Sequence record: MH675927.1
Length of the DNA: 64,000 nt
Origin: Escherichia phage vB_vPM_PD114
Direction: 5' to 3' (one strand)
Each line of letters begins with the position of its first letter. Within the stretch, counting starts at the first letter, position 1. Shown here piece after piece: positions 8,945 to 23,177 of the stretch. The notes under the pieces were generated by a model. It worked only from the letters and a program-made list of their open reading frames with translations, was not told the origin of the DNA and ran no database searches. A program made the translations under genes and the position numbers.

Positions 8945-9667
8945 TTAAGCAATGATTGCTGCGATATTAGGTTTAACAAAGGTAGATGGCTTCATAATTT
9001 TACCTTTGTCATCAAAGAATACGTATACCTTTTGAACTTCGTTATATACAGCATGTACTCCAGTATAAGAACCTTCTGCACGATCTTTGCTTCGCATCTC
9101 GATAGCATCACACTCTTTTTCAAGAGCTTCAACAATATCCTTAGTTTCCCAAATAGCCAGGAGTTGCTTCTTGGTAGGATACTTGGACTCATTGCTATTC
9201 AACACTTCACGCATAACCTTCTTCTCGTTATAAACAGAACGCACCAAAGTATCTCGTGCCATACGTGTAAGTGTAAGAGACATTAGGGCAAATTGCAAGT
9301 CATTTTCTACCATTTTATCAAATTCAATGATAACATCGTAAATGTTTTCTGCCAGAACATCTCCTGTCGGCATTTCCAGGGCTTTATCAACACCTTCTTT
9401 ACCAAAGAACATAAATGCCAGGTAGGATGCTACCACAAAAATATCTGCTGCTGCATCAAGTAATTCAACGTGATCATTTTCCTGTGCTGCTGCTTGGAAC
9501 TCTTTTAGTTCTTCTCGTACAAAAGAAAGTTGAGCTTCAAACATCTCTTGAGTAAATTCTGGGGTTACGCCACCACGTGCCTTAGCATTCCAAGCAACAA
9601 TTTGATCGGCAGCTTTGATAAAGAAGCTATTGTCCACTTTTACTTGTTTGAAAAAATTCTCGATCAT
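8945..9667 (-). CDS. MazG-like nucleoside triphosphate pyrophosphohydrolase (putative)
   Basis: EELKEFQAAAQENDHVELLDAAADIFVVASYLA resembles the MazG/all-alpha NTP-PPase EExxE...D motif; RBS GGAGAAACA-ATG. Confidence 0.4.
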   Translation of the reverse strand: MIENFFKQVKVDNSFFIKAADQIVAWNAKARGGVTPEFTQEMFEAQLSFVREELKEFQAAAQENDHVELLDAAADIFVVASYLAFMFFGKEGVDKALEMPTGDVLAENIYDVIIEFDKMVENDLQFALMSLTLTRMARDTLVRSVYNEKKVMREVLNSNESKYPTKKQLLAIWETKDIVEALEKECDAIEMRSKDRAEGSYTGVHAVYNEVQKVYVFFDDKGKIMKPSTFVKPNIAAIIA

Positions 9668-9676
9668 TGTTTCTCC

Positions 9677-9856
9677 TTATTTAAAATATTGTTCTAACAA
9701 AACACTAATGCGAACTACCGATTCGCCCATATACGCCCCAGCACAGAGGAAAACAACAAATCTACAAAAATTGCAGTACCATTTGTTCACTGGAAACGAG
9801 GCTAACATTATAATTGCAATAGCAATTAACATCATAAGAACTGTTACTAATACCAT
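9677..9856 (-). CDS. small hydrophobic membrane protein (59 aa), not in ORF track
   Basis: Own translation MVLVTVLMMLIAIAIIMLASFPVNKWYCNFCRFVVFLCAGAYMGESVVRISVLLEQYFK; RBS AGAGG upstream; stop overlaps RBS of next gene. Confidence 0.35.
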   Translation of the reverse strand: MVLVTVLMMLIAIAIIMLASFPVNKWYCNFCRFVVFLCAGAYMGESVVRISVLLEQYFK

Positions 9857-9865
9857 ATTTACCTC

Positions 9866-10981
9866 TTACTCTGCTGGTTCCCAAGTACCTGGAATCATCT
9901 TACGTACACGTACCCCAACAGGCTTGGTAGGAATACCTTCGTCTGAAAATTCTTCGTACTCAATTTCAACAAATTGACCAATAAGTGTCAAAGCATTTTC
10001 TTCTTTACGATAGTTAATGGTTTCATCTGAATCCTTACGCATCAGGAATTCGACTACTTTACCATTTTCCATCTCGCCTGTCAATACCCCGTCACCATTT
10101 TTATCACGCTTTGCACTTACCACCTTAACTTCAAGCGTCTGCCGTGGTTTACGTTTAATAACATCATAAGAACGTTTATCAAACTCGTAAACACCTTGTG
10201 CATTACGATACACCACACCTTCCGCTTTCTCACGCAGAGCTTTTGCATAGAATTCATCAAACTGCTCTTGGTTTTCAATGTACTCTGTATGTACTACACA
10301 AATAAGTTCGTCTAAACCTTTATCTTGAACAACTTCTTTTAGAGCAGCCAAAACTTCAACCCTCTTCTCAAATGGTACAGATGGCACAGGAACATCATAT
10401 ACATAGTATTTAAGAAGCGGAGTGTTAGCATTATGCTTTTTCCACGCACTATTAATTTGTTGAAGGCTAAGAACACCCAAACCAGCAAAAACTTCACCGT
10501 CAAGAGGATGACCAACTACTTCTTTAATGAAGGTTGGAATTTCTTTCCAGTGAGGTGGAAGTTTATATACTTCCCCAGCTTTAGATAAGCATTCACCTTG
10601 CATGTTAATCATTGAACGTAGACCATTCAATTTATACTGTGCATAACCTGGAAACAAAACACGATCAGCATAATCTTTATAATCCTGACATTTCATGGGT
10701 GTGGAAGGAACATGGTTTTCAGCTTCCTCTTTTGTTTTATAATACCCATTCTTAAGTTGCTTTGTCCATTTGGCAAGAGCTTCTATTTCAGCTTGTTCTT
10801 CTGCTGTTGTTTCATTTGAGCGACCAATATTTTTAGGTTCTGCTGTATAAGATTTGCTAGTAATCTTTCCACCTAATTGACCATGAGTAACAGTTACAAC
10901 ACTACCTTCGGTATAGACTGACCACTGTTTAATTTTACCTGTAGAAGTTTTACCATACAATGTAGGATTAGTTTGTTTCAT
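9866..10981 (-). CDS. ATP-dependent ligase-family nucleotidyltransferase (probable DNA ligase)
   Basis: Motif I-like KLNGLR, motif III-like DGEVF, motif IV-like EGVVYR, basic KRKP region and C-terminal OB-like domain; start set at ATG after GGAGG (track start 11029 lies 16 codons upstream). Confidence 0.45.
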   Translation of the reverse strand: MKQTNPTLYGKTSTGKIKQWSVYTEGSVVTVTHGQLGGKITSKSYTAEPKNIGRSNETTAEEQAEIEALAKWTKQLKNGYYKTKEEAENHVPSTPMKCQDYKDYADRVLFPGYAQYKLNGLRSMINMQGECLSKAGEVYKLPPHWKEIPTFIKEVVGHPLDGEVFAGLGVLSLQQINSAWKKHNANTPLLKYYVYDVPVPSVPFEKRVEVLAALKEVVQDKGLDELICVVHTEYIENQEQFDEFYAKALREKAEGVVYRNAQGVYEFDKRSYDVIKRKPRQTLEVKVVSAKRDKNGDGVLTGEMENGKVVEFLMRKDSDETINYRKEENALTLIGQFVEIEYEEFSDEGIPTKPVGVRVRKMIPGTWEPAE

Positions 10982-11171
10982 CTTTAACCTCCAGTTGCGA
11001 AAGAACCCATTTAGCCATTTCAATTTCACCGTGTAGTCTGCCTAGTTCATAGGCATCATCAATATTACCACCAGTGTAATCATCCACCATAAAGTAAGGA
11101 TCTTCGCTACTGTTAGGTGCGTTTGCAATTCTCGTTAGTTCTTCAATAAATGTCATAGTTACCCTTACCAA
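10968..11171 (-). CDS. hypothetical protein (67 aa)
   Basis: ORF track. Confidence 0.3.
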   Translation of the reverse strand: MVRVTMTFIEELTRIANAPNSSEDPYFMVDDYTGGNIDDAYELGRLHGEIEMAKWVLSQLEVKDETN

Positions 11172-11389
11172 TTATACACAAGAGTTTGAATCTCTTCCAT
11201 CAAATCTTCAAGATCTGTATCAACGTATTCAGAAGATGTTGCCATAAAGTATGTAATCATTGTGAACCCTTCCGAAGAAAGAGCATCAAGGATATCATTA
11301 AACATATCTTCCATTTCAGTATTCTCACCAAATGAGAATAACATTTGTTGGTCTTCGCTTACACCTTTAACATAGATAGCTGTACTCAT
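11165..11389 (-). CDS. hypothetical acidic protein (74 aa)
   Basis: ORF track. Confidence 0.3.
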   Translation of the reverse strand: MSTAIYVKGVSEDQQMLFSFGENTEMEDMFNDILDALSSEGFTMITYFMATSSEYVDTDLEDLMEEIQTLVYNW

Positions 11390-11392
11390 ATA

Positions 11393-11713
11393 TTAATCCT
11401 TAAGACGTTCATTTAAATCTGCAATAACATCACCTAAATCTTCACATTCCAGTGTTAACTCTGAAACTTGTTCATTCAAACAAGAAACTTCTTCGTTTAG
11501 ATCTGAAATAATGTTTTCTAATGAATCTACTTGGTCATCATATGAACGTTTTGTTTCTTCAAGTTCTTCCGTAAGATCATTAATCAAACGGAGCAAAGAT
11601 AAGATATAGCCGTCTCCTGTCTCGTTCCTCCACTCACTTCCGTAGCGATAAATAATAATTTCACCATTATCGACTACTGTAAAATACTTACCTTCACCAG
11701 AATAAATTTCCAT
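11393..11713 (-). CDS. hypothetical coiled-coil protein (106 aa)
   Basis: ORF track; heptad-like LxxEL repeats. Confidence 0.3.
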   Translation of the reverse strand: MEIYSGEGKYFTVVDNGEIIIYRYGSEWRNETGDGYILSLLRLINDLTEELEETKRSYDDQVDSLENIISDLNEEVSCLNEQVSELTLECEDLGDVIADLNERLKD

Positions 11714-11722
11714 ACACTCTCC

Positions 11723-12127
11723 TTATTGTAGCTTAAGTGAACTGCGAAGACGTTTCTCTTGCTGATCACGAATATGTTGTGGAACCTCATGAATTGAGTC
11801 GTTACCGTGCCTATTTTCAACAACTAAAGAGATAACTTGATAACCAAACTCTTCAGCAAGAGTAAAATAAGGTTTAAGTTCTTTCTCTGTGGTTGAAGTG
11901 TTAGAGACAATAATCTTTTTAATATTAGATGCCATAGCATCACGAACAATACTCTGACACCATGCGTGTGCTTTACCTACATTTTCTGGCTTCCAATCGT
12001 AAACACCACTTTCTGTGTAATGATATTGATCTGCCTCACAGATAGGCCAATAACCTTCAGAAATAATTTCTGCTACTGTAGATTTACCTGCACCTGAAAC
12101 ACCACGTAAAATGATAAGTTGTTTCAT
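11723..12127 (-). CDS. polynucleotide 5'-kinase (T4 Pnk kinase-domain-like)
   Basis: MKQLIILRGVSGAGKST (P-loop) and IIVSNTSTTEKELKPYFTLAEEFGYQV, colinear with the kinase domain of T4 polynucleotide kinase; no HAD phosphatase domain. Confidence 0.6.
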   Translation of the reverse strand: MKQLIILRGVSGAGKSTVAEIISEGYWPICEADQYHYTESGVYDWKPENVGKAHAWCQSIVRDAMASNIKKIIVSNTSTTEKELKPYFTLAEEFGYQVISLVVENRHGNDSIHEVPQHIRDQQEKRLRSSLKLQ

Positions 12128-13060
12128 TTAGCCTCCAAAGAAGTTTTCTATTTCTTTACGTCGCTCTTGTGGATCTAAAGCAGCCCATTGAGTCTTGGTA
12201 AAGTTGTTTCGAAGCCATTCTAGCAAAGTATAATATTCTTCGTCAACAATTTGTTTAGCATTTTTTGGGTTGTCCCAAATCATATCCCACTTCTTATTGC
12301 CACCACGCATAAGGAATTTCTTAGCAAGATAGTATGGTGACTTAATCTTTAACAGCAAGTTAAACGGATAGTTTGTTTCACGAACTACAAACCCTTCGTG
12401 CTTACATTGTTTAGACATTTCAACAACATCTGAAAATTTAATCATCTGATAAACTTCAGGACGTTTAAATTTTGTAACAGATGCAATCCCATCGAGCACA
12501 CCTTCAGGTAGCATGAAACTTGTCCCATCATCATTTTGAATTCTTGCTCCGATTAAGTATGCACCTGGTTCTTCTTCAACAATATGTGGATCAGAAGGAT
12601 CACAGATTTCAAAAAGGAAAGTTGCTTTTGCACTTTCTGTCCACTTAATGAAATATTCTATGTCATCACACTCGGAAACAATATGGTTCTTGGCAAGAGT
12701 TGCAAAATCTGACTCTAGGCTCCCTGTTGTTGATACAATAAGTTGCCCTTTGTACACACCTACAGATGCCATAAAACCGTTTACTTTACGGACAGCATCT
12801 ACAAGTTGGTCTGCTGGAAGATCTGTACCATTCTCAAAACGATTAAAGATTTTAGTAAAAGGCCAAATAACAACATTGTCTTCTGAGTCAACAACCAACC
12901 CACGACAATCTAGAAGTCGTTTGTCAACGTTCCACAAGTTATCCCAGAATACATTGTTTTTGTATTTAAGTACAGCAAGACCAGCATACTCTCCAGATTT
13001 AACTTCTTTTTTATGCACTAAACCTTTTGCAATCAGGTCATCACAATTGAACTTAGCCAC
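12128..13060 (-). CDS. RNA-ligase-like nucleotidyltransferase (putative RNA ligase)
   Basis: KVNGF (KxNG motif I-like), EGFVVR (motif IV-like), KIKSPYY (motif V-like); lies between phosphoesterase and kinase genes. Confidence 0.45.
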   Translation of the reverse strand: MAKFNCDDLIAKGLVHKKEVKSGEYAGLAVLKYKNNVFWDNLWNVDKRLLDCRGLVVDSEDNVVIWPFTKIFNRFENGTDLPADQLVDAVRKVNGFMASVGVYKGQLIVSTTGSLESDFATLAKNHIVSECDDIEYFIKWTESAKATFLFEICDPSDPHIVEEEPGAYLIGARIQNDDGTSFMLPEGVLDGIASVTKFKRPEVYQMIKFSDVVEMSKQCKHEGFVVRETNYPFNLLLKIKSPYYLAKKFLMRGGNKKWDMIWDNPKNAKQIVDEEYYTLLEWLRNNFTKTQWAALDPQERRKEIENFFGG

Positions 13061-13061
13061 C

Positions 13062-13613
13062 TTAATCTCCTTTGATTATCTTATGATGGTCTACAACAAC
13101 AATATCACGCTTATCCATAATAGAGATGATTTCGTCAAAATGCAAGATTTTTCCGTGTGCGTCCCAACCAACGTCCAACATTTTCCCATACAAATGATCA
13201 GGGAATGATCCGTGAGAGTGCCCGTGTAGCATGATTGATCCATGCCCTTGTTTATTCCAGGAAGCCATAGGGTAATGACTTAAGACGAAGAACAGTTTCT
13301 GATATTTCACTTCGTCATAATACACCACCTCGCCATATTCTGCAAGCACTTCTCGGTGTTTGCTGTAATCATGGTTCCCAACACAGTAAGTGATATCACC
13401 TTGAAGACGTGAAGCAATTTTACGGGTATCTTCTTCAGTCCCGAAACAGAAGTCGCCCAAGTGCCACATCTTGACACCAGGACTCGTAGCACATTTATTC
13501 CATGCTTCAATCAGTGCTTCTGTCATATGATCCATATCTTCCCACGGGCGATATTCAGGAGCAAACTCTCGAATACGTTTGTGCATAAAATGCAAATCAC
13601 TTGTAATAAACAT
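13062..13613 (-). CDS. calcineurin-like metallophosphoesterase
   Basis: GDFCFG...(x)GNHDY...HGHSH metallophosphatase signature; 1-nt gap to downstream gene. Confidence 0.6.
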   Translation of the reverse strand: MFITSDLHFMHKRIREFAPEYRPWEDMDHMTEALIEAWNKCATSPGVKMWHLGDFCFGTEEDTRKIASRLQGDITYCVGNHDYSKHREVLAEYGEVVYYDEVKYQKLFFVLSHYPMASWNKQGHGSIMLHGHSHGSFPDHLYGKMLDVGWDAHGKILHFDEIISIMDKRDIVVVDHHKIIKGD

Positions 13614-13975
13614 TAGTATAATCCCTCGCTGAATAGTTCACTGTCGTGACCATTTCTTTCATAGTTAATTTGTTTGGCGTTATCTGCAATGATATAAGCA
13701 TCTTTGCGACTCCACCAATTATAATACTGATCAATAAACCCTTGATTATCAGGTAAGCAAAACAGCTTATCAATCAATCCTGCATCTTTTAAAACATTAA
13801 GTTGTGCAGATAGTACAGGATTTGCATGCCTAACACAAAGAATAATCAATTCTTCGCCATTGTTGAGAATATACTTATTCGCAGCGCATACTATAACACG
13901 TTGAGCATAGTGATCCTCACCAATCCAAGTAAGAGGTTGGTAACAAATATCATGTTGATTAGTAGCGCACATCAA
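13613..13975 (-). CDS. hypothetical protein (120 aa)
   Basis: ORF track. Confidence 0.35.
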   Translation of the reverse strand: MMCATNQHDICYQPLTWIGEDHYAQRVIVCAANKYILNNGEELIILCVRHANPVLSAQLNVLKDAGLIDKLFCLPDNQGFIDQYYNWWSRKDAYIIADNAKQINYERNGHDSELFSEGLY

Positions 13976-14130
13976 TTTTCTCCGTACTCTTTTAATCTAT
14001 CAGCGAAAAAACTGTAATCAGGAAGTAAAAGATCATTACTCGTATCGTTACAGTTTTCTTCATCTTTATAGATAAAACGCCCTTCATCCTCTTCTTGCTC
14101 TGACCAAACTGAGTAATGCATAATACCTAC

Positions 14131-14505
14131 TTAATAGTTAACACGTTTAATTTCAACACCATAGGATGAAATAAAATTTTCCTTAGCTAACATATATTTA
14201 CCGGCAGCAGAAGGATTTGATGTATGAACATAGATAGTTTTAAGAGCATCCCATTCACCAGCGTACAACATACATTCTACGTCTAAGAACGCATGATATC
14301 CTTCTTGATCTTCTCCAAGATCATTATCGAAGTGTATCTCTGAGATATTATTGAAATTATCTTCATCTGAAACAAAAGATAACCAATCCTCAAAAGATTT
14401 TAACCAAATGGCATCCTCATAACCATAATCTTTAGGATCTCTTAAATCGTCTAACCAAAGAATTTTAGCCACTATCAACCCCCTTCCTGTTTCTCTTCTT
14501 TCCAA
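14131..14505 (-). CDS. hypothetical protein (124 aa)
   Basis: ORF track. Confidence 0.35.
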   Translation of the reverse strand: MERRETGRGLIVAKILWLDDLRDPKDYGYEDAIWLKSFEDWLSFVSDEDNFNNISEIHFDNDLGEDQEGYHAFLDVECMLYAGEWDALKTIYVHTSNPSAAGKYMLAKENFISSYGVEIKRVNY

Positions 14506-14666
14506 GTTTTACCATTATCTACCAACTTCTTAGAAACAGCAAATCTTTCTCCATTGATATAAAACAAATAAAGAATAAAGGATTTTCCTATAGTTACAGT
14601 ATCTACTACTTTTACACGCTTCACACCTTGCATGTATTTGGCTTTACCTGAATAAATAAGGAACAT
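14475..14666 (-). CDS. hypothetical protein (63 aa)
   Basis: ORF track. Confidence 0.3.
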   Translation of the reverse strand: MFLIYSGKAKYMQGVKRVKVVDTVTIGKSFILYLFYINGERFAVSKKLVDNGKTWKEEKQEGG

Positions 14667-14944
14667 TACTTATTCCTTTTGTTGTTGATCACATCTAAAG
14701 CTGTGTAAGGTTTGTTTGTACCGCTGTATTCAAGAATAATTGGTACATATTCATAGACCAACTCAAAAGTACCATACATAGAATCTGCAACTGAAATAAG
14801 CATTTCAGTGCCTTTGTCGTTCTTAATTAATGAAAATCTTGCCCCTGGTTTATTGAGCACTTCATATTTCTTACCTGCTGTCAGCAAACCTGAATACCAT
14901 TCATTTTGCACAACAGACAAACACTTCAGATAAGTTTTTCTCAT
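14666..14944 (-). CDS. hypothetical protein (92 aa)
   Basis: ORF track. Confidence 0.3.
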   Translation of the reverse strand: MRKTYLKCLSVVQNEWYSGLLTAGKKYEVLNKPGARFSLIKNDKGTEMLISVADSMYGTFELVYEYVPIILEYSGTNKPYTALDVINNKRNK

Positions 14945-15282
14945 TTCTTTTTGCTCCTTCTTTTAGGTTTCTCGTATAAACCTAACACAGCCGATTCTTT
15001 TGCGCAAATAGGAACTGACTTCATTCCTCGTTTTTTAGCTTCTGGTAGATTCAAAACCCACCAGCCAAACCAGTACAATTCATCTTCTGTGAAAGGATCT
15101 GCCATAGGATCTGCATCACGTTCCTCAAATTTAGCAAGAGCTTCTTCTATCTTTTCTATTGGAGTATCAAAGACAAAAGCCTCTGTGTCAAATTTTTGTT
15201 TCTTAGGAGCGGCTTTTGCCGCCCCATCTTTAGATGCGCGCTTTGTTACGGATCGCTTCTTCGGTGTTTTCGCCATCAACAA
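14941..15282 (-). CDS. hypothetical lysine-rich protein (113 aa)
   Basis: ORF track; basic N- and C-termini (KKRSVTKRASK..., KPKRRSKKK). Confidence 0.35.
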   Translation of the reverse strand: MLMAKTPKKRSVTKRASKDGAAKAAPKKQKFDTEAFVFDTPIEKIEEALAKFEERDADPMADPFTEDELYWFGWWVLNLPEAKKRGMKSVPICAKESAVLGLYEKPKRRSKKK

Positions 15283-15469
15283 CCTCCATGCGGTGTAAGA
15301 AATCTTGCTGGAATCGCCAATACTGTTGACCAGTCCTTACATCTTCGTAGATCACAACAGGATCAAATACTTTAGATACACCCGCTGGTTTAGGAAAGCC
15401 AACTACACGATATAAACCGCCTTTGCTAATACAAGAATATGTTACATCAGTTAAAATTTCTTTTTTCAT
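15230..15469 (-). CDS. hypothetical protein (79 aa)
   Basis: ORF track. Confidence 0.3.
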   Translation of the reverse strand: MKKEILTDVTYSCISKGGLYRVVGFPKPAGVSKVFDPVVIYEDVRTGQQYWRFQQDFLHRMEVVDGENTEEAIRNKARI

Positions 15470-15663
15470 TTCTTAATAAACTCCAATACAGGTACGTGAT
15501 CAGCAGTTAAAGTTACACAATTGTAACTTACCTTTTCAACTTCAGAGAATGCTTCAACCCATAGCAAGAAATTCTCTTTAGCTTCTTCATAATTCAATGT
15601 TGACTTAACAACATGGAACTCACCAAGGATTACTCTATAGATTGTTTGCATAGTTTGATTCAT
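15466..15663 (-). CDS. hypothetical protein (65 aa)
   Basis: ORF track. Confidence 0.3.
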   Translation of the reverse strand: MNQTMQTIYRVILGEFHVVKSTLNYEEAKENFLLWVEAFSEVEKVSYNCVTLTADHVPVLEFIKK

Positions 15664-15729
15664 TTATTTTTCCTTTGTTTAAAATGTGTTAAACAATCGC
15701 AAATGCTTGTGACGCACTTTGTGATCCCA

Positions 15730-16137
15730 CTAATTAACGTCAGCACTATGATTGTTGAGAGTATAGGATACTCCATCGCCCAAGTCAACATGAATCTCAA
15801 CTCCTAATTGTCTTTCTAATGGTAAACGTTTTGAGAATTGATAATTACAAAGTTTACAGTCTAAGTCAAGCAACTCATGTTTGCTTAAACCTGCAACGAT
15901 AACTTTGCTTCCTACTGTCCACTCAATACCTTCAAAGTTATCTCTTCTTTTCAAAATGTCAAGTAAGAAGATGATTTGTTGCCATTCCGTAGACAAGTCT
16001 TCTTCATAGAATGCAGAACAAAAAGTTTTATCATCGTAGAAAGCATACATTATGCCTCCATCTATTGTTTCACTTCTAACGTAACGTGTGACCCTCATTA
16101 TTCCCTCCTGTATGGCTCTGTAACGAGCTAATAGCAC
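15730..16137 (-). CDS. hypothetical protein (135 aa), first gene of the minus-strand block
   Basis: ATG preceded by CAGGAGGG; ORF track. Confidence 0.4.
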   Translation of the reverse strand: MLLARYRAIQEGIMRVTRYVRSETIDGGIMYAFYDDKTFCSAFYEEDLSTEWQQIIFLLDILKRRDNFEGIEWTVGSKVIVAGLSKHELLDLDCKLCNYQFSKRLPLERQLGVEIHVDLGDGVSYTLNNHSADVN

Positions 16138-16228
16138 CTAAGATATGCAATCACCTTACCTCACAGTAAAACTCGTTACAATCGTTTTTAGGAGGTTCAG
16201 GTTGTACTTAAAAATAATCTAAAAGGTG

Positions 16229-16257
16229 TTGACAAACGCAAAAAAGTATGCTACCCT
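16229..16257 (+). promoter_or_regulatory. sigma70-like promoter TTGACA-N17-TACCCT
   Basis: Read directly; followed by GC-rich inverted repeat CCCCCG...CGAGGGGG. Confidence 0.35.
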
Positions 16258-16437
16258 AACCCCCGAAAAACGCCGAGCGCAGCGAGGGGGTGTTATCTAA
16301 TCTTGTGATACATGATCTAACAGACAACTGAGTAGTCTACATATAGCACTATGTTATGTCTATAATACTAACATACATGCTCTATACTAACAATAGATTA
16401 TTTATTAATTTTATTATTAATTAAATAATAAATATCT

Positions 16438-16466
16438 ATTGACTTTAGATCTATCTGTATGTAGAG
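16438..16466 (+). promoter_or_regulatory. sigma70-like promoter TTGACT-N17-TAGAGT with AT-rich UP-like element upstream
   Basis: Read directly; ~40 nt before the Prs-like gene start. Confidence 0.5.
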
Positions 16467-16506
16467 TAGAGAACATAAAGTCCTAACGCAACTAAGGAGA
16501 TAAAGA

Positions 16507-17400
16507 ATGAAAGTTAGTATTCTGCATGGTGTTGACTGTTATGTTACTGATGTAGACGTTAAAGTGTTTACATTCTCTGGTGGAGAACAACATGTTCAAT
16601 TAGATACGAATCTATCAGGTTTCAATCATGCTACAGACAGAATCTTACTCACTTTAGAAGTAAGATCTGCTAAAGACTTGATGACTTTGGTTATGACTAA
16701 GAATGCATTGGACAATATGCTATATCATAAACCATATTGTGTTGATTTACTCATGTTGTATGTGCCGTATGCACGACAAGACAGAGTGTGTGAGCCTGGG
16801 GAAGCATTCGGAGTTAAAGCATTTGCTTCTATAATTAATTCATTAAATTTCTCACGTGTTATCGTTGCTGATCCGCATAGTGATGTTACTCCAGCAGTGT
16901 TTGACAGACTCTGTGTAATACCTCAAGAGGAGATTGCTTACGAAACTTTAAAGTGGAAGTTACGTATGGAGAATTTTGCTCTTGTTAGCCCTGATGGTGG
17001 TGCTCTTAAGAAAATATTTAAATTATCTAAGAAAATGTCTTTAGATGTGTTCTGTGCAGAGAAGGTTAGAGATACCGCAACAGGTGCTATTGTTCGTACA
17101 GACATTTCTGTACAGGATTTCAATAAGCGTAACCTGATGATCGTAGATGATATCTGTGATGGTGGTAGAACTTTTATTGAATTGGCTAAAGTGCTACGTG
17201 CTCGTAACGCAGGTAAGATTGAGTTATATGTTACACACGGTATCTTCTCTAAAGGTCTTAAAGAGTTGAGTGAACACTTTGACTGCATTCATTCTCTTAA
17301 TGTGTGGGAAGATAACATCCAAGAAGATTCCGGTGTTCTTGTTAAGAATCAGTCAGATTTGCAACAACAAATTGTATCTCCATACGTGTGGAATTTTTAA
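16507..17400 (+). CDS. PRPP-synthetase-family pyrophosphokinase; candidate ADP-ribose pyrophosphokinase (Adps) of NARP1
   Basis: PYARQDR, LVSPDGGALKK, LMIVDDICDGGRTF, VTHGIFSKG align with Prs motifs (PYFGYARQDRR, VVSPDIGG, VLVDDMIDTGGT, ATHPIFSG); RBS AGGAG; followed by NAMPT-like gene. Confidence 0.7.
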   Translation: MKVSILHGVDCYVTDVDVKVFTFSGGEQHVQLDTNLSGFNHATDRILLTLEVRSAKDLMTLVMTKNALDNMLYHKPYCVDLLMLYVPYARQDRVCEPGEAFGVKAFASIINSLNFSRVIVADPHSDVTPAVFDRLCVIPQEEIAYETLKWKLRMENFALVSPDGGALKKIFKLSKKMSLDVFCAEKVRDTATGAIVRTDISVQDFNKRNLMIVDDICDGGRTFIELAKVLRARNAGKIELYVTHGIFSKGLKELSEHFDCIHSLNVWEDNIQEDSGVLVKNQSDLQQQIVSPYVWNF

Positions 17401-17410
17401 ATAATAAGTG

Positions 17411-17439
17411 TTGACAATAGGGAGTATGCTTAGTAAGAT
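17411..17439 (+). promoter_or_regulatory. sigma70-like promoter TTGACA-N17-TAAGAT overlapping inverted repeat GGGAGTAT/ATACTCCC
   Basis: Read directly. Confidence 0.4.
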
Positions 17440-17471
17440 ACTCCCACATTAACAAACAAGGAGACATAACT

Positions 17472-19205
17472 ATGAATATTTTTGCACCTTTTGCTACTGA
17501 TTGGTACAAACCTGGTCACAAGCAGATGTACAATCAAAATACAAAACTCATTTTCTCTAATTTAACTCCTCGTAATGATAAAAACTTTGCACACTATGCA
17601 GATCGTGAAGCACGTGGTGTGATTGTTTTAGGTATTCGTCGAGCAGTCACTGATGCTCTTGTAACTATGTGGGATAGCTTCTTTAAAATGTCTCGTAGTG
17701 CAGCAGTAAATAAATTTTATCGTATGTCTAAAAATGCATTAGGTGCTTCTGCTCCTTCTGCTGAATGTTGGGGAGAATTGCACGATTTAGGTTATCTTCC
17801 GCTGGAAGTTCGATCTCTGCCAGAAGGTGTTTTGTGTCCTATTGGTGTTCCTGTGTTTACTGTGCATAATACTTTAGAAAAATTCTTTTGGTTAACTAAC
17901 TATGTGGAAACACTGTTGTCAGATGAAACTTGGAAGACAATGACTAATGCCACAGCAGCTTTTCAGTATAAGCGTATCGCTATGGCATATGCGATGGCAA
18001 CGTGTGATAATATTGATCACGTTAACTTCCAGTGTCATGACTTTAGCCTACGTGGTTTAAGTAATATCGAAGATGGTTATAAGAGTGGTATCGCTCACTT
18101 GGCATCGTTCACAGGAACAGATAATATTCTGGCTATTGAAACTGTGCATGACTATTATGGTATTGATTATGATCAGTTTGTTGCAGGTTCTATTCCGGCA
18201 ACAGAACATTCAGTAGCAACGACTAACATTGGAGCTATTGTTGAAGATCTGAAGAAACATTTCCCACATCTTAAAGATGATGTAGATGGGCTTCGTTATG
18301 TAGCAGAAAAAGAGTTTCTTCGTCGTTATATCGAAGAAATTGTTCCAGAAGGTTTTTGTTCATATGTAGCAGACTCTTATGACTATTGGGCTGTATTGAC
18401 TCGCATTCTGGTAGAATTGAAAGATTCCATTATGTCACGAAATGGTCGTCTTGTTATTCGTCCAGATTCAGGAGATCCGGTTAAAGTTGTTGCAGGATAC
18501 AATGTTGAATCTTTTGATAACTATGAAGACCTCTTAAATAATGGTATTGCGACAGCCACTGAAGTAGTTCATTTGGCTGATGTTAATAAGTATTACAATG
18601 TTCTTCAGGATTGCAGTGTTGCTGACTGTATTGATGAAACTTATGAGATTCCTTATTGTGAAGCAGTAGGTTCTATTCAAATCCTTTGGGAAGTGTTTGG
18701 TGGTACTATCAACCGAAAAGGCTACAAGGTTCTTGATCAGCATATCGGTATGATTTATGGTGATTCTATTACTGTTGAACGAGAACACGAGATCTTACGC
18801 CGACTGAAGAAGAAAGGTTTTGCAGCTTCCAATATTGTATTTGGTGTTGGTAGTTATACTTATCAGTTCAATACACGAGATACTTTTGGTTTTGCTGTTA
18901 AAGCAACAGGTAGTATTATCGGTGAACACGAAATTTTGGTAAGTAAGGAGCCTAAAACTGATCCTGGTAAACGCTCTGCAAAAGGTTTTATTAAGGTTGT
19001 TAAGGATACCAATGGTAATCTGTCTCTTGTAGATAATCTTTCTTTTAAAGATATCCAGGATGAAGACAATGAGTTACAAGTTATCTTCAAGGATGGTAAG
19101 GTTATTACACCACAAGTAGAAGGCCGTGATGAAACATTCACTGATATCCGCAACCGTGTTGACGTAGAGGTTCTTCGTACTATGGGAACCATCCAGGTTG
19201 ACTAA
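17472..19205 (+). CDS. nicotinamide phosphoribosyltransferase-family protein; candidate nicotinamide ADPR transferase (Namat) of NARP1
   Basis: 577 aa, NAMPT/NadV-like length and motifs (e.g. SIPATEHSVATT, GDSITVE); RBS AAGGAG; immediately downstream of the Prs-like gene. Confidence 0.7.
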   Translation: MNIFAPFATDWYKPGHKQMYNQNTKLIFSNLTPRNDKNFAHYADREARGVIVLGIRRAVTDALVTMWDSFFKMSRSAAVNKFYRMSKNALGASAPSAECWGELHDLGYLPLEVRSLPEGVLCPIGVPVFTVHNTLEKFFWLTNYVETLLSDETWKTMTNATAAFQYKRIAMAYAMATCDNIDHVNFQCHDFSLRGLSNIEDGYKSGIAHLASFTGTDNILAIETVHDYYGIDYDQFVAGSIPATEHSVATTNIGAIVEDLKKHFPHLKDDVDGLRYVAEKEFLRRYIEEIVPEGFCSYVADSYDYWAVLTRILVELKDSIMSRNGRLVIRPDSGDPVKVVAGYNVESFDNYEDLLNNGIATATEVVHLADVNKYYNVLQDCSVADCIDETYEIPYCEAVGSIQILWEVFGGTINRKGYKVLDQHIGMIYGDSITVEREHEILRRLKKKGFAASNIVFGVGSYTYQFNTRDTFGFAVKATGSIIGEHEILVSKEPKTDPGKRSAKGFIKVVKDTNGNLSLVDNLSFKDIQDEDNELQVIFKDGKVITPQVEGRDETFTDIRNRVDVEVLRTMGTIQVD

Positions 19206-19276
19206 ATAAAAACTTCGTGATAAGATTAAGGTAAGGAGAGCCTACAACTGCCCTGGATGGGCTTCACGAAGGATTT

Positions 19277-19498
19277 ATGAAACAACATAATTTTTATTTT
19301 CGTTGCCGAGCCTGTAACAGACACTTGACTAATCATTCCCGTAGAGACAGGAATGGTAATATTCAAGAGTCGGATCTATGCTCGATTTGTACAAGTTTGG
19401 CATTCGATGACAGTCCCGAAAGGGTTTATCAACATCAAAGTGTAACTGATCTTCTTCTAAATTACACAACACCAGAGGAGGAATTAGATTTCACATAA
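19277..19498 (+). CDS. hypothetical zinc-ribbon-like protein (73 aa)
   Basis: CRACNRH ... CSIC Cys pairs; ORF track. Confidence 0.35.
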   Translation: MKQHNFYFRCRACNRHLTNHSRRDRNGNIQESDLCSICTSLAFDDSPERVYQHQSVTDLLLNYTTPEEELDFT

Positions 19499-19511
19499 TT
19501 AAGGAAACAGT

Positions 19512-19622
19512 ATGTCTACAGAAATTATTTTTGGCTTATCTGTTTTTATTGCTATTGTATCTTTTGTATGCGGTTATACACTAGGTTACAGATCAAGAAA
19601 AAATATTGTAAAAACTAGTTGA
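19512..19622 (+). CDS. very small hydrophobic peptide (36 aa), not in ORF track
   Basis: AAGGAAACAGT-ATG; MSTEIIFGLSVFIAIVSFVCGYTLGYRSRKNIVKTS. Confidence 0.25.
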   Translation: MSTEIIFGLSVFIAIVSFVCGYTLGYRSRKNIVKTS

Positions 19623-19648
19623 CAACATAGCTAGTTATTTGCTAAGAT
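19619..19648 (+). promoter_or_regulatory. sigma70-like promoter TTGACA-N18-TAAGAT
   Basis: Read directly. Confidence 0.4.
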
Positions 19649-19678
19649 AAGCACAAGTTAAACAAAAAGGAGAAAACT

Positions 19679-19945
19679 ATGACAGAACGTACTTATGGTA
19701 AAGAATTGATTGAGAAGCACGTATTGATTGATAATAAAGGTGGAGCAATCTTTATTTTTGAACCTGAATCAGTTCTTACTGAAAACGAAAATGGTAGCGT
19801 TAGCCTTAAAACAGAAAGTTTGGTAATTGACTTCCTTGCTCTTCTGGATGAAATGGGGCTTCCGCACGAAGAAGAAGCAGCTATTGCTTTGATTACAGTT
19901 CTTCTGGAGAAACGCGAAGCTGGTGAAATGACCCAGTATGCTTAA
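19679..19945 (+). CDS. hypothetical protein (88 aa)
   Basis: AAAGGAGAAAACT-ATG; ORF track. Confidence 0.4.
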   Translation: MTERTYGKELIEKHVLIDNKGGAIFIFEPESVLTENENGSVSLKTESLVIDFLALLDEMGLPHEEEAAIALITVLLEKREAGEMTQYA

Positions 19946-19952
19946 TATTCAA

Positions 19953-20028
19953 GGTTCCATAGCTCACTGACGAGAGCGCACACCTCATAAGTGTCGAGGG
20001 CAGGGATTGTAACCCTGGGGAACCACCA
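19953..20028 (+). tRNA. tRNA-Met(CAT)-like, atypical T-loop
   Basis: Acceptor GGTTCC/GGAACC (position 7 mismatched), D-stem GCTC/GAGC, anticodon loop CTCATAA, T-arm CAGGG-ATTGTAA-CCCTG, encoded CCA. Hand-folded. Confidence 0.4.
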
Positions 20029-20059
20029 TTTAAAAGGAGATGCTATGCATCTCCTATAT

Positions 20060-20145
20060 GCAAGTGTGGTGGAATTGGTGATACACATTGTGCTTAAAAC
20101 GCAACGCTTAAATGATTGAGGGTTCGAATCCCTCCACTTGCACCA
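20060..20145 (+). tRNA. tRNA-Leu(TAA), class II
   Basis: Acceptor GCAAGTG/CACTTGC, anticodon loop CTTAAAA, long variable arm, T-arm GAGGG-TTCGAAT-CCCTC, discriminator A, CCA encoded. Confidence 0.6.
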
Positions 20146-20147
20146 AC

Positions 20148-20253
20148 GCCTAGTAGGGTATTTGGTAATTCCGAGGCCATCAAAGCCTGAAAAATATGTT
20201 AGACCGCTTTGTCTAACTAAATACGAAATATGGTTCGATTCCATAACTAGGCT
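20148..20253 (+). tRNA. tRNA-like element, unusually long (106 nt); possible pseudo-tRNA or tRNA with insertion
   Basis: Perfect acceptor pairing GCCTAGT/ACTAGGC and T-arm TATGG-TTCGATT-CCATA, but 74 nt between them with internal 7-bp hairpin GTTAGAC/GTCTAAC. Confidence 0.25.
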
Positions 20254-20285
20254 TCAATTTAAATAATAATTTTAGTAAAAATATC

Positions 20286-20314
20286 TTGACATTCACTTAG
20301 TTTTTTGTTATAGT
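20286..20314 (+). promoter_or_regulatory. sigma70-like promoter TTGACA-N17-TATAGT
   Basis: Read directly; ~12 nt upstream of next tRNA. Confidence 0.5.
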
Positions 20315-20325
20315 TACTGTGAAAA

Positions 20326-20407
20326 CGGGGTGTATCTCACCTGACTTCTAATCAGGCGTTAACCGAGTAATTGGAGTATGCAGGTTCGAATCCTGTCACC
20401 CCGACCA
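20326..20407 (+). tRNA. tRNA-like with Arg(TCT)-type anticodon arm, atypical D region
   Basis: Acceptor CGGGGTG/CACCCCG, T-arm GCAGG-TTCGAAT-CCTGT, CCA encoded; hairpin CCTGA-CTTCTAA-TCAGG only 7 nt after acceptor, no D-arm found by hand. Confidence 0.4.
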
Positions 20408-20425
20408 AAAAGTTTTAAAAACTAC

Positions 20426-20455
20426 TTGACAAGCAAGATAGTTTTATGTTAGATT
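20426..20455 (+). promoter_or_regulatory. sigma70-like promoter TTGACA-N18-TAGATT
   Basis: Read directly. Confidence 0.4.
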
Positions 20456-20470
20456 TAAAGTATGATAACG

Positions 20471-20560
20471 GGAAGGTAGGGCGCAGCGGTGCGCAACCAG
20501 GTTTGAACCCTGGCCCATTGTAGCGATACGGTGATGGTTCGACTCCATTATCTTCCTCCA
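20471..20560 (+). tRNA. tRNA-Ser(TGA), class II
   Basis: Acceptor GGAAGGT/ATCTTCC (one G-U), anticodon arm CCAGG-TTTGAAC-CCTGG, long variable arm, T-arm GATGG-TTCGACT-CCATT, CCA encoded. Confidence 0.55.
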
Positions 20561-20578
20561 AATTCAACTAGGAGCTTT

Positions 20579-20731
20579 ATGAATTATAAAACTATTGGAC
20601 AGGTTGTTACCGGAGTTAAGATTGTAGATAATAAAGTTGTTTATGAGTATTCTAATCTTCAACAATCTGAAGATGGTAAAAATATTCGTATGGTAAAAGC
20701 AGAACAAAAAGATTCCGGTTGTTTTGAATAA
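20579..20731 (+). CDS. hypothetical small protein (50 aa; track ORF 20531-20731 trimmed to avoid tRNA overlap)
   Basis: TAGGAGC...ATG at 20579 right after tRNA-Ser. Confidence 0.3.
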   Translation: MNYKTIGQVVTGVKIVDNKVVYEYSNLQQSEDGKNIRMVKAEQKDSGCFE

Positions 20732-20739
20732 TTAAGAAC

Positions 20740-20825
20740 GGTAGATTGGTGAAATGGTAGCCACAACAGTTTGCTAAACTGTCGTCGGAAACGGCGTGTA
20801 GGTTCAAGTCCTACATCTACCGCCA
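20740..20825 (+). tRNA. tRNA-Ser(GCT), class II
   Basis: Acceptor GGTAGAT/ATCTACC, anticodon arm ACAGT-TTGCTAA-ACTGT, long variable arm, T-arm GTAGG-TTCAAGT-CCTAC, discriminator G, CCA encoded. Confidence 0.6.
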
Positions 20826-20845
20826 AATTTATGCGAGGAGGATGT

Positions 20846-21226
20846 ATGCCAAGCAATGATTATATGCGGGAATACATGAAAACTCGGTGGCAGAAGCGAA
20901 GAGCTTCCGCAATCCTCCAGCTTGGAGGTAAATGTGTTAATTGTGGGTCTGTAGATGACTTGGAATTTGATCATAAAGATTCAAGCGAGAAGAAGTTTTA
21001 TATTAGTCGAATGAGTTCATGCTCTGAGGCTAAATGGCAGGAAGAACTTGCCAAATGTCAACTTTTGTGCCATGACTGTCACATGAAGAAGACAAGAATA
21101 TCCCAAGACATGGGAAACAGAATTAGAACAACGGTGTGTGTTTGCGGGGCAGTATTTTATAGTACAAAGGCTTATGCTGGACATACACGGTGGTGTAAAG
21201 AGTATGCATCGTTAGCCAAGCGGTAA
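20846..21226 (+). CDS. HNH endonuclease (free-standing, inside tRNA cluster)
   Basis: CVNCGSVDDLEFDHKD...CQLLCHDCHMKK...C-terminal Cys/His cluster; RBS GAGGAGG; last ~7 codons overlap the 5' end of the following tRNA. Confidence 0.55.
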   Translation: MPSNDYMREYMKTRWQKRRASAILQLGGKCVNCGSVDDLEFDHKDSSEKKFYISRMSSCSEAKWQEELAKCQLLCHDCHMKKTRISQDMGNRIRTTVCVCGAVFYSTKAYAGHTRWCKEYASLAKR

Positions 21227-21280
21227 GGCACTTGACTTTTAATCAAGGGAGCGAAGGTTCGAATCCTTCACGATGTACCA
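21206..21280 (+). tRNA. tRNA-Lys(TTT)
   Basis: Acceptor GCATCGT/ACGATGT (G1-U72), D-stem GCC/GGC, anticodon arm CTTGA-CTTTTAA-TCAAG, T-arm GAAGG-TTCGAAT-CCTTC, CCA encoded. Confidence 0.55.
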
Positions 21281-21285
21281 AACAC

Positions 21286-21372
21286 GTAGGTATCGCATAG
21301 CGGCAATTGCTGGAGACTGTAAATCTCCTGCCCTTCGGGGCTTCGTTGGTTCGAGTCCAACTACCTGCACCA
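21286..21372 (+). tRNA. tRNA-Tyr(GTA), class II
   Basis: Acceptor GTAGGTA/TACCTGC, anticodon arm GGAGA-CTGTAAA-TCTCC, long variable arm, T-arm GTTGG-TTCGAGT-CCAAC, discriminator A, CCA. Confidence 0.55.
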
Positions 21373-21379
21373 AATTAAA

Positions 21380-21464
21380 GATGGATTGGCCTAGTGGTTG
21401 GGCGACGGACTGTTAATCCGTGAACGAAAGTTCTAGCAAGGTTCAAATCCTTGATCCATCGCCA
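21380..21464 (+). tRNA. class II (Ser-like architecture) tRNA with GTT anticodon
   Basis: Acceptor GATGGAT/ATCCATC, 3-bp D-stem GCC/GGC, anticodon arm ACGGA-CTGTTAA-TCCGT, 15-nt variable hairpin GAAC-GAAA-GTTC, T-arm CAAGG-TTCAAAT-CCTTG, discriminator G, CCA. Confidence 0.45.
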
Positions 21465-21471
21465 GAATTAT

Positions 21472-21548
21472 GGACTTGTAGAGTTAAGGTAAACCCTCAG
21501 TCGCAAAGAGGCTTCTGGAATTGCAGGTATCGAATCCTGCCGAGTCCA
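21472..21548 (+). tRNA. tRNA, anticodon unresolved
   Basis: Acceptor GGACTTG/CGAGTCC, T-arm GCAGG-(T)ATCGAAT-CCTGC with 8-nt loop; anticodon arm could not be folded unambiguously (possible loop GTCGCAA). Confidence 0.35.
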
Positions 21549-21554
21549 ATTATT

Positions 21555-21629
21555 GCTCCTATCGTATAACGGCTATTACGGTTGCCTTGTAAGCAACTTA
21601 TCAGGGTTCGAGTCCTTGTGGGAGCACCA
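21555..21629 (+). tRNA. tRNA-Thr(TGT)
   Basis: Acceptor GCTCCTA/TGGGAGC, anticodon arm GTTGC-CTTGTAA-GCAAC, T-arm CAGGG-TTCGAGT-CCTTG, CCA encoded. Confidence 0.55.
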
Positions 21630-21652
21630 ATTTTAACTCTAAAGGAGTGTAT

Positions 21653-21976
21653 GTGACAGAAAAAGAGTTAGAGAAATATTTTAATATCAATGTTTTCGAT
21701 GGTTTTGATGATATTGAAGATGTTGAAAGATATTATGAAGTAGAGTTAGATAAGGATAACATTGTAATTCTTTCTGCCACTTATGATTGTGCATATTATG
21801 AAGGTGAATCTCACGTTTATTTTTATGATATGAAAACATCTTTGTTTTATGAAGTACACGCATATCATTGTTCTTGTTATGGTTTAGAAGGTCAGTGGGA
21901 ACCTGAAGAAATAGGTGATTTGAGCTTTACGGTTGCATATCTAAACAGACGTGGTGCATCTACTATTTTAAAATAA
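21653..21976 (+). CDS. hypothetical acidic protein (107 aa) inside tRNA cluster
   Basis: AGGAG then GTG at 21653 (track start 21647 overlaps the RBS); ORF track. Confidence 0.4.
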   Translation: MTEKELEKYFNINVFDGFDDIEDVERYYEVELDKDNIVILSATYDCAYYEGESHVYFYDMKTSLFYEVHAYHCSCYGLEGQWEPEEIGDLSFTVAYLNRRGASTILK

Positions 21977-21990
21977 ATATTAAAAGCCTC

Positions 21991-22020
21991 TTGACAAAGG
22001 GGCTAATAATATGTTAGAGT
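21991..22020 (+). promoter_or_regulatory. sigma70-like promoter TTGACA-N18-TAGAGT
   Basis: Read directly; precedes tRNA-Gly. Confidence 0.45.
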
Positions 22021-22031
22021 AATATTGTTAA

Positions 22032-22106
22032 GCGGGTATAGTGTTAATGGTAGCATATGAGGTTTCCACCCTCCAGGTGCAGGTTCAAGTCCTGTTACTC
22101 GCTCCA
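22032..22106 (+). tRNA. tRNA-Gly(TCC)
   Basis: Acceptor GCGGGTA/TACTCGC, anticodon loop TTTCCAC, T-arm GCAGG-TTCAAGT-CCTGT, CCA encoded. Confidence 0.5.
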
Positions 22107-22537
22107 AGATTATTTAAATGGAATCGCTAGAGAAAATTTCTCTTTTCGCTCATGGTTTTCTCCTTCAAACTCTAGCGGTTCTTTTTAAGTGATTTTTTAG
22201 TTTATTGGAGATTCACTGCCTTAGTGTGAGCTAAAATCGAGGAGCCATCGAACTGTCTGATTAATGATTTGCGAATCATTATAGTTTTAAGACCCCGGCA
22301 GTTTTATGGTGTACCTCTTGAATGTGAATGATGACGGGTTTATGGTTATCCTGGTCGTTAAATATCCAAAAACCTATGTTCCCCTTGAGGGCTTGCGCAG
22401 GCAATGCCAATAAGTCCTGCATTTTCATTTAAAAGAGAATTTATAATGGAAAAAGATGAACTTAAGTATGCTAAGCCTCTGGCTTCTGCTGCACGAAAAG
22501 CAGTTCGTCACTTTGTGGTAACACTGAAGTAATTTAT

Positions 22538-22612
22538 TGGAGATTAGCCTAGTGGGAAGGCAACGGCCTTTGAAGTCGTGATGACTAGGTTCGATTCCTA
22601 GATCTCCAGCCA
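22538..22612 (+). tRNA. tRNA-Gln(TTG)
   Basis: Acceptor TGGAGAT/ATCTCCA, D-stem GCC/GGC, anticodon arm ACGGC-CTTTGAA-GTCGT, T-arm CTAGG-TTCGATT-CCTAG, CCA. Confidence 0.5.
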
Positions 22613-22619
22613 AGATTTA

Positions 22620-22695: not shown

Positions 22696-22700
22696 AATTT

Positions 22701-22775: not shown

Positions 22776-22852
22776 AATAACACCATCCAAGGAGTAGACT
22801 TGGTTAACTGTCAATAGCACATTGAGGCTTCTTACAGTGGTGTACTTATTAT

Positions 22853-22937: not shown

Positions 22938-22952
22938 AATTATTACAGATTG

Positions 22953-23172: not shown

Positions 23173-23177
23173 ATTAT

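Follow-up and report, generated by a model that had tools for sequence, protein, structure and literature searches.

What do the small genes beside the divergent control region of Escherichia phage vB_vPM_PD114 (sequence record MH675927.1) do? In a 64,000-nucleotide stretch of this record, hereafter called the window, the initial annotation placed eight consecutive open reading frames (ORFs) at 13613–16137 and took them for early genes, of the sort enriched for host-takeover and anti-defence functions. We followed up this proposal computationally. On balance, we favour a reading in which the block forms the accessory, promoter-proximal part of a leftward operon of pre-replicative type, that is, not a single machine but ten independently evolving genes held in one translationally coupled chain, where the distal trio (gp100, gp099 and gp098, in the nomenclature of phage phi92) is physically tied to a predicted RNA-repair cassette and the seven upstream genes most likely act early in host takeover or counter-defence. 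The block itself is real and ordinary in kind, and its genes already figure as hypothetical in public annotation.

Gene content and conservation of the block

Judged by its sequence, the window belongs to a phi92-like myovirus of the genus Justusliebigvirus. An alignment over the whole of 13613–16506 gives 98.5–99.3% identity with Escherichia phages ECGD1, W22, SD2 and phi92, and identity with about 55 records of Justusliebigvirus (Stephanstirmvirinae) is 95–99%. Gene order is the same as in phi92 (window coordinates are phi92 record coordinates minus 31671), where the block corresponds to gp098 to gp106A/B, all of them 'hypothetical' and each with a predicted ribosome-binding site. All block genes are on the minus strand and directly follow a 369-bp divergent intergenic region (16138–16506), at which the sign of the GC skew flips, so that the position next to a strand switch, as first described, is borne out. 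From the intergenic region leftwards the genes are as follows.

15730–16098, minus strand: gp106 homologue, 122 amino acids (aa), acidic, first gene of the unit
15660–15791, minus strand: 43-aa single-pass membrane peptide, unannotated in phi92, overlapping the 3′ end of gp106
15466–15663, minus strand: gp105 homologue, 65 aa, phrog_15683
15230–15469, minus strand: gp104 homologue, 79 aa, weakly DUF1653-like
14941–15276, minus strand: gp103 homologue, 111 aa, isoelectric point (pI) 9.6
14666–14944, minus strand: gp102 homologue, 92 aa, phrog_10169
14475–14666, minus strand: gp101 homologue, 63 aa, basic, phrog_15376
14131–14472, minus strand: gp100 homologue, 113 aa, GTG start, cREC domain
13972–14121, minus strand: gp099 homologue, 49 aa, very acidic, net charge -10
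13613–13972, minus strand: gp098 homologue, 119 aa, T4 Arn.3 family

The eight ORFs first reported are all in the program-made ORF list at their coordinates, but the block holds ten genes, namely the nine annotated in phi92 (gp098–gp106) and the 43-aa membrane ORF; the latter and gp099 had been overlooked. Similarly, the lengths first given (135, 65, 79, 113, 92, 63, 124 and 120 aa) are those of the longest ORFs in the list, and three of them, 135, 124 and 120 aa, use upstream TTG or GTG codons. Starts chosen from ribosome-binding sites, the phi92 annotation and the N-termini of homologues make 122, 113 and 119 aa the likely lengths of these three proteins, and the lengths listed above are the likely ones for the other annotated genes; for gp106, the N-termini of homologues favour the ATG at 16098 over the GTG at 16137. 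The tight coupling of the genes stands. Ribosome-binding sites precede nearly every start, and the junctions are overlaps of 1–4 nt or gaps no longer than 9 nt, with one longer overlap, of 47 nt, between gp104 and gp103. The coupled chain, unbroken from gp105 to gp095, runs past 13613 into gp097, gp096 and gp095, and in a scan of 13000–17000 nothing terminator-like turned up within the block.

All nine annotated genes are present in the sister genus Phapecoctavirus, with 42–83% amino-acid identity. In this comparison, in which synonymous divergence is near-saturated, pN/pS ranges from 0.15 to 0.53 for the nine genes, and by this measure all of them are under purifying selection. Several observations nevertheless mark the upstream genes as accessory. 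Identity to Phapecoctavirus drops towards the promoter, from 96% for gp097 to 83% for gp098 and 42% for gp106. Klebsiella phage KP2025 keeps gp098, gp100, gp103, gp104, gp105 and gp106, and has unrelated small ORFs in place of gp099, gp101 and gp102. In Phapecoctavirus, two extra genes are inserted between gp100 and gp101. Finally, gp099 is a hypervariable slot: among six Justusliebigvirus genomes it has 46.7 variable sites per 100 nt, compared with 2–9 in the flanking features. Within the genus, gp099 exists as two alleles that are about 30% identical and of equal length and charge, the window-type allele (at least 80% identical) being present in 39 records; in ESCO8 it carries a nonsense codon, and the annotation of that phage lacks the gene. 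In KP2025, four other small ORFs occupy the slot.

The cREC and Arn.3-like proteins and the RNA-repair genes

The proteins of the block were said to carry no recognizable motifs, which is wrong for at least two of them: gp100 has a cREC domain and gp098 belongs to the T4 Arn.3 family. When the ten block proteins were scanned against Pfam, NCBIfam and PHROGs, gp100 was the only one with a function-bearing match. Residues 4–92 of gp100 align to positions 2–81 of the 88 of the PF20274 (cREC_REC) profile with E = 2.3e-14 and 54.3 bits, twice the gathering cut-off of 27. In six homologues that are 34–53% identical to gp100, no variation is seen in the motifs W-DD-R-P, H-DNDLG and HTSNP, nor in residues D8, D9, D49, N50, D51 and H83-T-S-N-P87. 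The acidic active-site residues of the receiver type, an aspartate pair following strand 1 and an aspartate following strand 3, are thus conserved, the strand assignment being taken from the receiver fold. Sequence and profile searches of the PDB with gp100 returned no match. The cREC domain owes its definition to comparative genomics, in which it was recognized as receiver-like and predicted to open 2′,3′-cyclic phosphates on RNA or ADP-ribose 1″,2″-cyclic phosphate (PMC7824862). The gp100 protein is a predicted cyclic-phosphate phosphoesterase. In GenBank, cREC homologues are mislabelled 'RNA ligase and tail attachment protein' or 'nudix hydrolase', and the correct name was found only in HMD-6.

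The genes that follow the block and those on the other side of the intergenic region are listed here.

13062–13613, minus strand: gp097, calcineurin-like metallophosphoesterase, overlapping gp098 by 1 nt
12128–13060, minus strand: gp096, T4 Rnl1-type RNA ligase (PF09511 RNA_lig_T4_1, E = 5.5e-15)
11723–12127, minus strand: gp095, P-loop nucleotide/polynucleotide kinase-like protein (AAA_33, E = 1.1e-9; Walker A GVSGAGKS)
8945–9667, minus strand: MazG-like pyrophosphohydrolase (PRA-PH, E = 3.2e-7), in the same leftward unit
16507–17400, plus strand: PRPP synthetase (Pribosyltran/Pribosyl_synth), divergent
17472–19205, plus strand: NAMPT (NAPRTase, E = 6e-38), divergent
20060–23250, plus strand: 14 tRNA genes (Rfam RF00005, 14 matches above the gathering score)

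The assignment of gp097 combines a Metallophos_2 match below the cut-off (E = 1.5e-4), a match to PDB entry 1xm7 (E = 2.5e-6) and the DLH, GD, GNHD and GHSH motifs in its translation, while the translation of gp096 contains the lysine motif KVNG. Searches of the PDB with gp096 and gp095 gave no match. The phi92 record also carries a 'hypothetical tRNA' of 151 nt (49736–49886, or about 18065–18215 of the window, plus strand), which lies inside the NAMPT gene, and an Rfam scan of 11000–26000 found no tRNA there.

Genes of the cREC family are characterized by a setting of RNA repair or of NAD/ADP-ribose processing, never by a histidine kinase, and the surroundings of gp100 fit this type, with RNA-repair genes downstream and the NAD-salvage genes for NAMPT and PRPP synthetase divergent. 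In 10 full-length rV5-like loci from IMG/VR, cREC lies within about 2.5 kb of a phosphoesterase in all 10, of an RNA ligase in 9 and of a kinase in 9. Six T5-like loci have 14–24 tRNAs around cREC, and in the T5-like phage PR1 cREC is inside the tRNA cluster. The order in Seunavirus KE22 is phosphoesterase, hypothetical protein, RNA ligase, cREC (overlapping the 3′ end of the ligase gene), kinase, SIR2 and DNA ligase; in the rV5-like phage HMD-6 it is RNA ligase (its 3′ end again overlapped by cREC), cREC, SIR2 and pyrophosphohydrolase. In rV5/Mydo phages, a sirtuin gene has been described together with genes for a T4-like tRNA ligase, cREC, a nucleotide kinase and MazG, in some cases also for a calcineurin-like phosphoesterase, and this neighbourhood has been read as an NAD+-using RNA-end repair system (Iyer et al. 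2022, PMC9503650 section 3.7.3; PMC7824862), a reading that is itself a computational prediction. The window resembles this neighbourhood in having PF09511, PF20274, AAA_33, PRA-PH and Metallophos_2 all on the minus strand at 8945–14472, and the orthologues from rV5-like phages and Seunavirus show 37–79% identity.

Another known system invites comparison. In phage T4, Pnkp and Rnl1 repair the tRNA-Lys that is cut by the host anticodon nuclease PrrC. The window likewise combines end-healing enzymes with an Rnl1-family ligase in the pre-replicative region of a large lytic coliphage; healing in T4 relies on one bifunctional kinase/HAD-phosphatase, whereas the window encodes a small kinase as a protein of its own, along with a metallophosphoesterase and a cREC protein. 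A mechanism can be proposed for the distal genes. Host anticodon nucleases or toxin RNases would cut tRNA and leave 2′,3′-cyclic phosphate and 5′-OH ends; gp100 would open the cyclic phosphate, gp097 would remove the leftover phosphate, gp095 would phosphorylate the 5′-OH and gp096 would reseal the tRNA. The 14 phage tRNAs, the NAD-salvage genes and the MazG-like gene would cover related host attacks.

The gp098 protein is 45.5% identical to the product of T4 arn.3 over 112 aa (E = 2e-23). The T4 match lies within arn.3 (162172–162630) and outside arn (161312–161590), and PF26092 is carried by all 21 close homologues of gp098 according to precomputed annotation. The family is large, with 1152 representative clusters in an exhaustive search. 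Among homologues that are 62–97% identical, 43 columns are invariant and include R-H, Q-G-F-D and E, so that conservation looks enzyme-like from the alignment. The initial annotation had proposed structure prediction as a check; AlphaFold2 (AF2) was run on gp098 and gp103 and gave models, neither of which matches a fold in the PDB. Sequence and profile searches of the PDB with gp098 also returned nothing. In BFVD, matches with E ≤ 0.001 are uncharacterized viral proteins except for one labelled 'putative polynucleotide kinase', and weak matches (E 0.02–0.06) are 'large polyvalent protein associated' domains. Ten longer members of the Arn.3 family have no informative fused Pfam domain, and the neighbours of Arn.3 homologues at 32 diverse loci comprise only T4 synteny (MotA, AsiA) and singletons.

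The label 'anti-restriction nuclease' that gp098 bears in some records derives from T4 Arn, a DNA-mimic inhibitor of McrBC. We considered gp098 as an Arn protein and rejected it: there is no DM_Arn match, and what gp098 shares with T4 Arn is the gene-name prefix only. Since the homology is to arn.3 and not to arn, the label is a case of name drift. The exceptional sensitivity reported for this phage group towards restriction-modification systems (PMC8594841) also argues against it.

Upstream genes, control region and timing

The seven genes between the intergenic region and gp100 are lineage-restricted and evolve fast, and in the reading that we favour they would most likely act early on the host, in takeover or counter-defence, each by its own mechanism. 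Four of them, gp101, gp102, gp105 and gp106, have matches limited to PHROG families of unknown function. The first, gp106 (phrog_14390), is 42–45% identical to its homologues in Phapecoctavirus and KP2025, has a pN/pS of 0.4–0.5 and forms a single cluster in a word-indexed search of 5.8 billion proteins. The 43-aa ORF has its own AGGAG site, and its TGA stop overlaps the gp105 ATG (ATGA); it encodes one hydrophobic stretch (KD19 1.9) and, after it, a basic tail. In Phapecoctavirus anhysbys, a 38-aa ORF with this pattern is annotated at the equivalent place. The 43-aa ORF itself differs from the phi92 sequence by 3 synonymous and 0 non-synonymous changes; neither phi92 nor the other Justusliebigvirus records inspected annotate the gene. 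The gp105 protein is 49–62% identical in relatives, with a pN/pS of about 0.3. Identity in Phapecoctavirus is 64% for gp102 and 72% for gp101, both of which are absent from KP2025.

The gp104 protein, 73–76% identical in relatives, resembles DUF1653 (PF07866) weakly (E = 0.077, 13.8 bits, below the cut-off of 23.5), as do two of three orthologues when these are scanned, and a profile search of the PDB gave no match. The gp104 gene runs out of frame into gp103 over 47 nt (15230–15276, minus strand), with its last 16 codons lying on the gp103 start; Phapecoctavirus and KP2025 keep the overlap, with conservation of both protein frames. The KP2025 homologue of gp104 (5843–6079 of the KP2025 stretch) lacks annotation. 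The gp103 protein has a conserved helical core between variable basic tails rich in Lys, Ala and Pro, and could possibly bind nucleic acid. It is found in rV5-like phages only, and in KE22 its homologue is directly upstream of the phosphoesterase gene. Several records call it 'transposase-like', a candidate function that we discarded: neither Pfam nor NCBIfam gives any match, with no transposase or helix–turn–helix domain, and no matching fold was found.

Two elements stand out in the intergenic region, for which Rfam gave no family match.

16246–16296, minus strand: GC-rich conserved intergenic element, CCCCCTCGCTGCGCTCGGCGTTTTTCGGGGGTTAGGGTAGCATAC, containing a weak terminator-like hairpin
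16140–16170, minus strand: candidate sigma-70-type promoter TTTACT ... CATATC/TATCTT, inside the conserved AGGTAAGGTGATT....ATCTTA of the gp106 leader

Only one of the 51 sites of the GC-rich element varies among six Justusliebigvirus genomes. The intergenic DNA of anhysbys and KP2025, which is AT-rich and cannot otherwise be aligned, retains the core of the element, CTCGCTGCGCTCG ... TAGGGTAGCATA; the TAGGGTAGCATA that follows the element is invariant. The element is present once in the window, and no copy was found in IMG/VR outside Justusliebigvirus. It might bind a protein, act as an attenuator or serve as an unusual promoter. The AGGTAAGGTGATT....ATCTTA segment is also conserved in otherwise unalignable intergenic DNA and is shared with anhysbys. 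The equivalent sites are TTTACT-17-TATCAT in anhysbys (9/12) and TTGACA-17-TATCAT in KP2025 (11/12), and in all three phages the promoter candidate is about 43–45 nt upstream of the gp106 homologue.

Early expression of the block can reasonably be inferred from its position and from the content of the operon. Farther down, the leftward unit contains an ATP-dependent DNA ligase, the MazG-like gene, RdgC, an exonuclease, a thymidine kinase and ThyX. Genes of such kinds are usually expressed before replication. The block also resembles the plastic small-ORF regions of T4-like genomes and, among them, the arn–motA region of T4, an early region whose expression timing is established: both have packed ORFs of 40–150 aa on the early (in the block, presumably early) strand, a content that varies between related phages, and an Arn.3 homologue in common. 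Unlike Arn.3, T4 Arn, AsiA and MotA have no homologue in the block.

Weighing the readings, and wider observations

A number of results weigh against the proposed takeover, counter-defence and RNA-repair roles. No informative homologue was found for seven of the ten block proteins, and the AF2 models of gp098 (pLDDT 90) and gp103 (pLDDT 73, with disordered tails) have no PDB match below E = 0.8 and E = 1, respectively. Concerning timing, the window promoter is no more than a candidate, because its -10 hexamer is poor; a sigma-70 and terminator scan of 13000–17000 gave a promoter-like count not above that of shuffled sequence, and a look through the literature on rV5- and phi92-like phages brought up no data on transcript timing, which is why early expression is put no more strongly than above. 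Concerning gp100, cREC is experimentally uncharacterized according to the authors who defined it (PMC9503650). Distant cREC-like matches, mostly partial, have no RNA ligase among the two nearest neighbours on each side, where only some metallophosphoesterases and one HAD RNA-repair phosphatase occur, so that the link between cREC and RNA repair is solid only within the phage groups described above. Unlike the rV5 type, the 64-kb window has no sirtuin detectable by tblastn with two phage SIR2 queries (best E = 0.42), and its cREC and ligase genes, which overlap in that type, are separated by gp099, gp098 and the phosphoesterase gene. In Justusliebigvirus PD06 (136087–136890), BME3 (134269–135069) and alia, a SIR2 homologue lies about 30–35 kb from cREC; coordinate mapping places the sirtuin roughly 18 kb past the left end of the window.

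Concerning counter-defence, the block ORFs have no match among validated anti-defence proteins. Bas60, of the same genus, has been used as a phage that is restricted by CBASS and KpAvs2 (bioRxiv 10.1101/2025.07.12.664507; PMC11564622), and Vequintavirinae and their relatives are reported to be exceptionally sensitive to restriction-modification (PMC8594841); any counter-defence must therefore be narrow. Two known proteins were considered and set aside. Ksap2, which is sensed by KpAvs2 in Bas60, is Bas60_220, while the block is bas60_0245–0253 (PMC11564622); Atd1 is of the MazG-type gene class, which lies outside the block. The functions encoded nearby, namely RNA repair, 14 tRNAs, NAD salvage and a MazG putatively of the Atd1 type, are nonetheless of kinds associated with counter-defence (PMC11724313; bioRxiv 10.1101/2022.06.09.495361). 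AntiDefenseFinder reports a (p)ppGpp-degrading, MazG-like Atd1 in Justusliebigvirus (PMC11724313), and this gene class is represented 4–5 kb downstream of the block.

Three other readings deserve consideration. The small proteins might mainly be regulators of host takeover or phage development, acting for example on the host nucleoid, transcription or the membrane, rather than inhibitors of dedicated defence systems, the link to RNA repair being positional only. The histone-like Lys/Ala/Pro tails of gp103, with its pI of 9.6, the presence of a single-pass membrane peptide in the block and the setting of T4 arn.3, the counterpart of gp098, which has the transcription-takeover genes motA and asiA around it, would all agree with such a role, as would the poor resistance of the group to restriction-modification, CBASS and Avs2 (PMC8594841; 10.1101/2025.07.12.664507; PMC11564622). 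However, no takeover function has domain-level support, and the allelic replacement of gp099, its tolerated nonsense codon and the rapid turnover of the genes fit arms-race accessories better than core regulators, so that we regard this reading as somewhat doubtful. It is unlikely, in our view, that gp100 acts instead on NAD-derived small molecules (ADP-ribose 1″,2″-cyclic phosphate or signals of the cyclic ADP-ribose type) together with the NAD-salvage genes, either to blunt TIR/Thoeris-type immunity or to clear the by-products of sirtuin-type 2′-phosphate removal. Both substrates are named as alternatives by the authors who defined cREC, who also noted cREC–Nudix fusions (PMC7824862 section 3.4.8; PMC9503650 sections 3.4.5, 3.7.3); SIR2 directly follows cREC in HMD-6 and is one gene further in KE22, and NAMPT and PRPP synthetase are about 2 kb from gp100. 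Yet the window, devoid of a sirtuin, has the ligase, kinase and phosphoesterase genes adjacent, and cREC is found among tRNA genes in T5-like phages.

It is very improbable that the ORFs are for the most part passively carried filler, non-functional or selfish, for instance decaying ORFans or moron-like insertions. The interruption of gp099 in ESCO8, the unrelated ORFs that fill several slots in relatives and the near absence of gp106 homologues outside the subfamily could be explained in this way. Against it stand a pN/pS well below 1 for all nine annotated genes at near-saturated synonymous divergence, the maintenance of ribosome-binding sites and of coupled stop/start overlaps, and the conservation of both frames where gp104 and gp103 overlap. 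A bolder variant of the accessory-segment reading, quite unlikely as a whole, would make the gp100–gp099–gp098 trio an add-on to the RNA-repair cassette, in which the Arn.3-like protein would be a new RNA- or nucleotide-end-processing enzyme and gp099 an arms-race partner, for example an inhibitor of or decoy for a host nuclease. The idea of a new enzyme comes from the 1152 clusters of the family, which include T4, from its enzyme-like invariant residues and from a confident model that matches nothing in the PDB. A function established for this family would have broad relevance, given its size and the unstudied T4 gene among its members.

The practical value of the analysis lies mostly in better annotation. 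The names 'anti-restriction nuclease', 'transposase-like', 'RNA ligase and tail attachment protein' and 'nudix hydrolase' are misleading, and neither phi92 nor most of the related records inspected have an annotated gene for the conserved membrane peptide. If the assignment of gp100 to RNA repair through cREC is true, phi92-like phages (BASEL Bas60–62) would offer a tractable Escherichia coli system in which to test the predicted cREC chemistry, and would show whether such cassettes protect against tRNA-cleaving defences.

Some observations concern the records and the remainder of the window. Four 'Campylobacter phage' records (MG065639, MG065645, MG065656 and MG065689; host Campylobacter jejuni) are 98.4% identical to the region; an erroneous host assignment or contaminant isolates might account for this. 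On the plus strand, runs of a 9-nt repeat (AAAGGTGAT-like) at 59392–59912 encode Gly-X-Y collagen-like repeats, presumably in a tail-fibre gene. Near-identical copies of AAAGGGGCTTTCGCCCCTTTTTA at 5339–5361 and 58521–58543 look like terminator-type hairpins, and a second pair, resembling ATAAAGCCTCGCTTCGGCGGGG, at 39982 and 51274, has the same look of recurring terminator-type hairpins.

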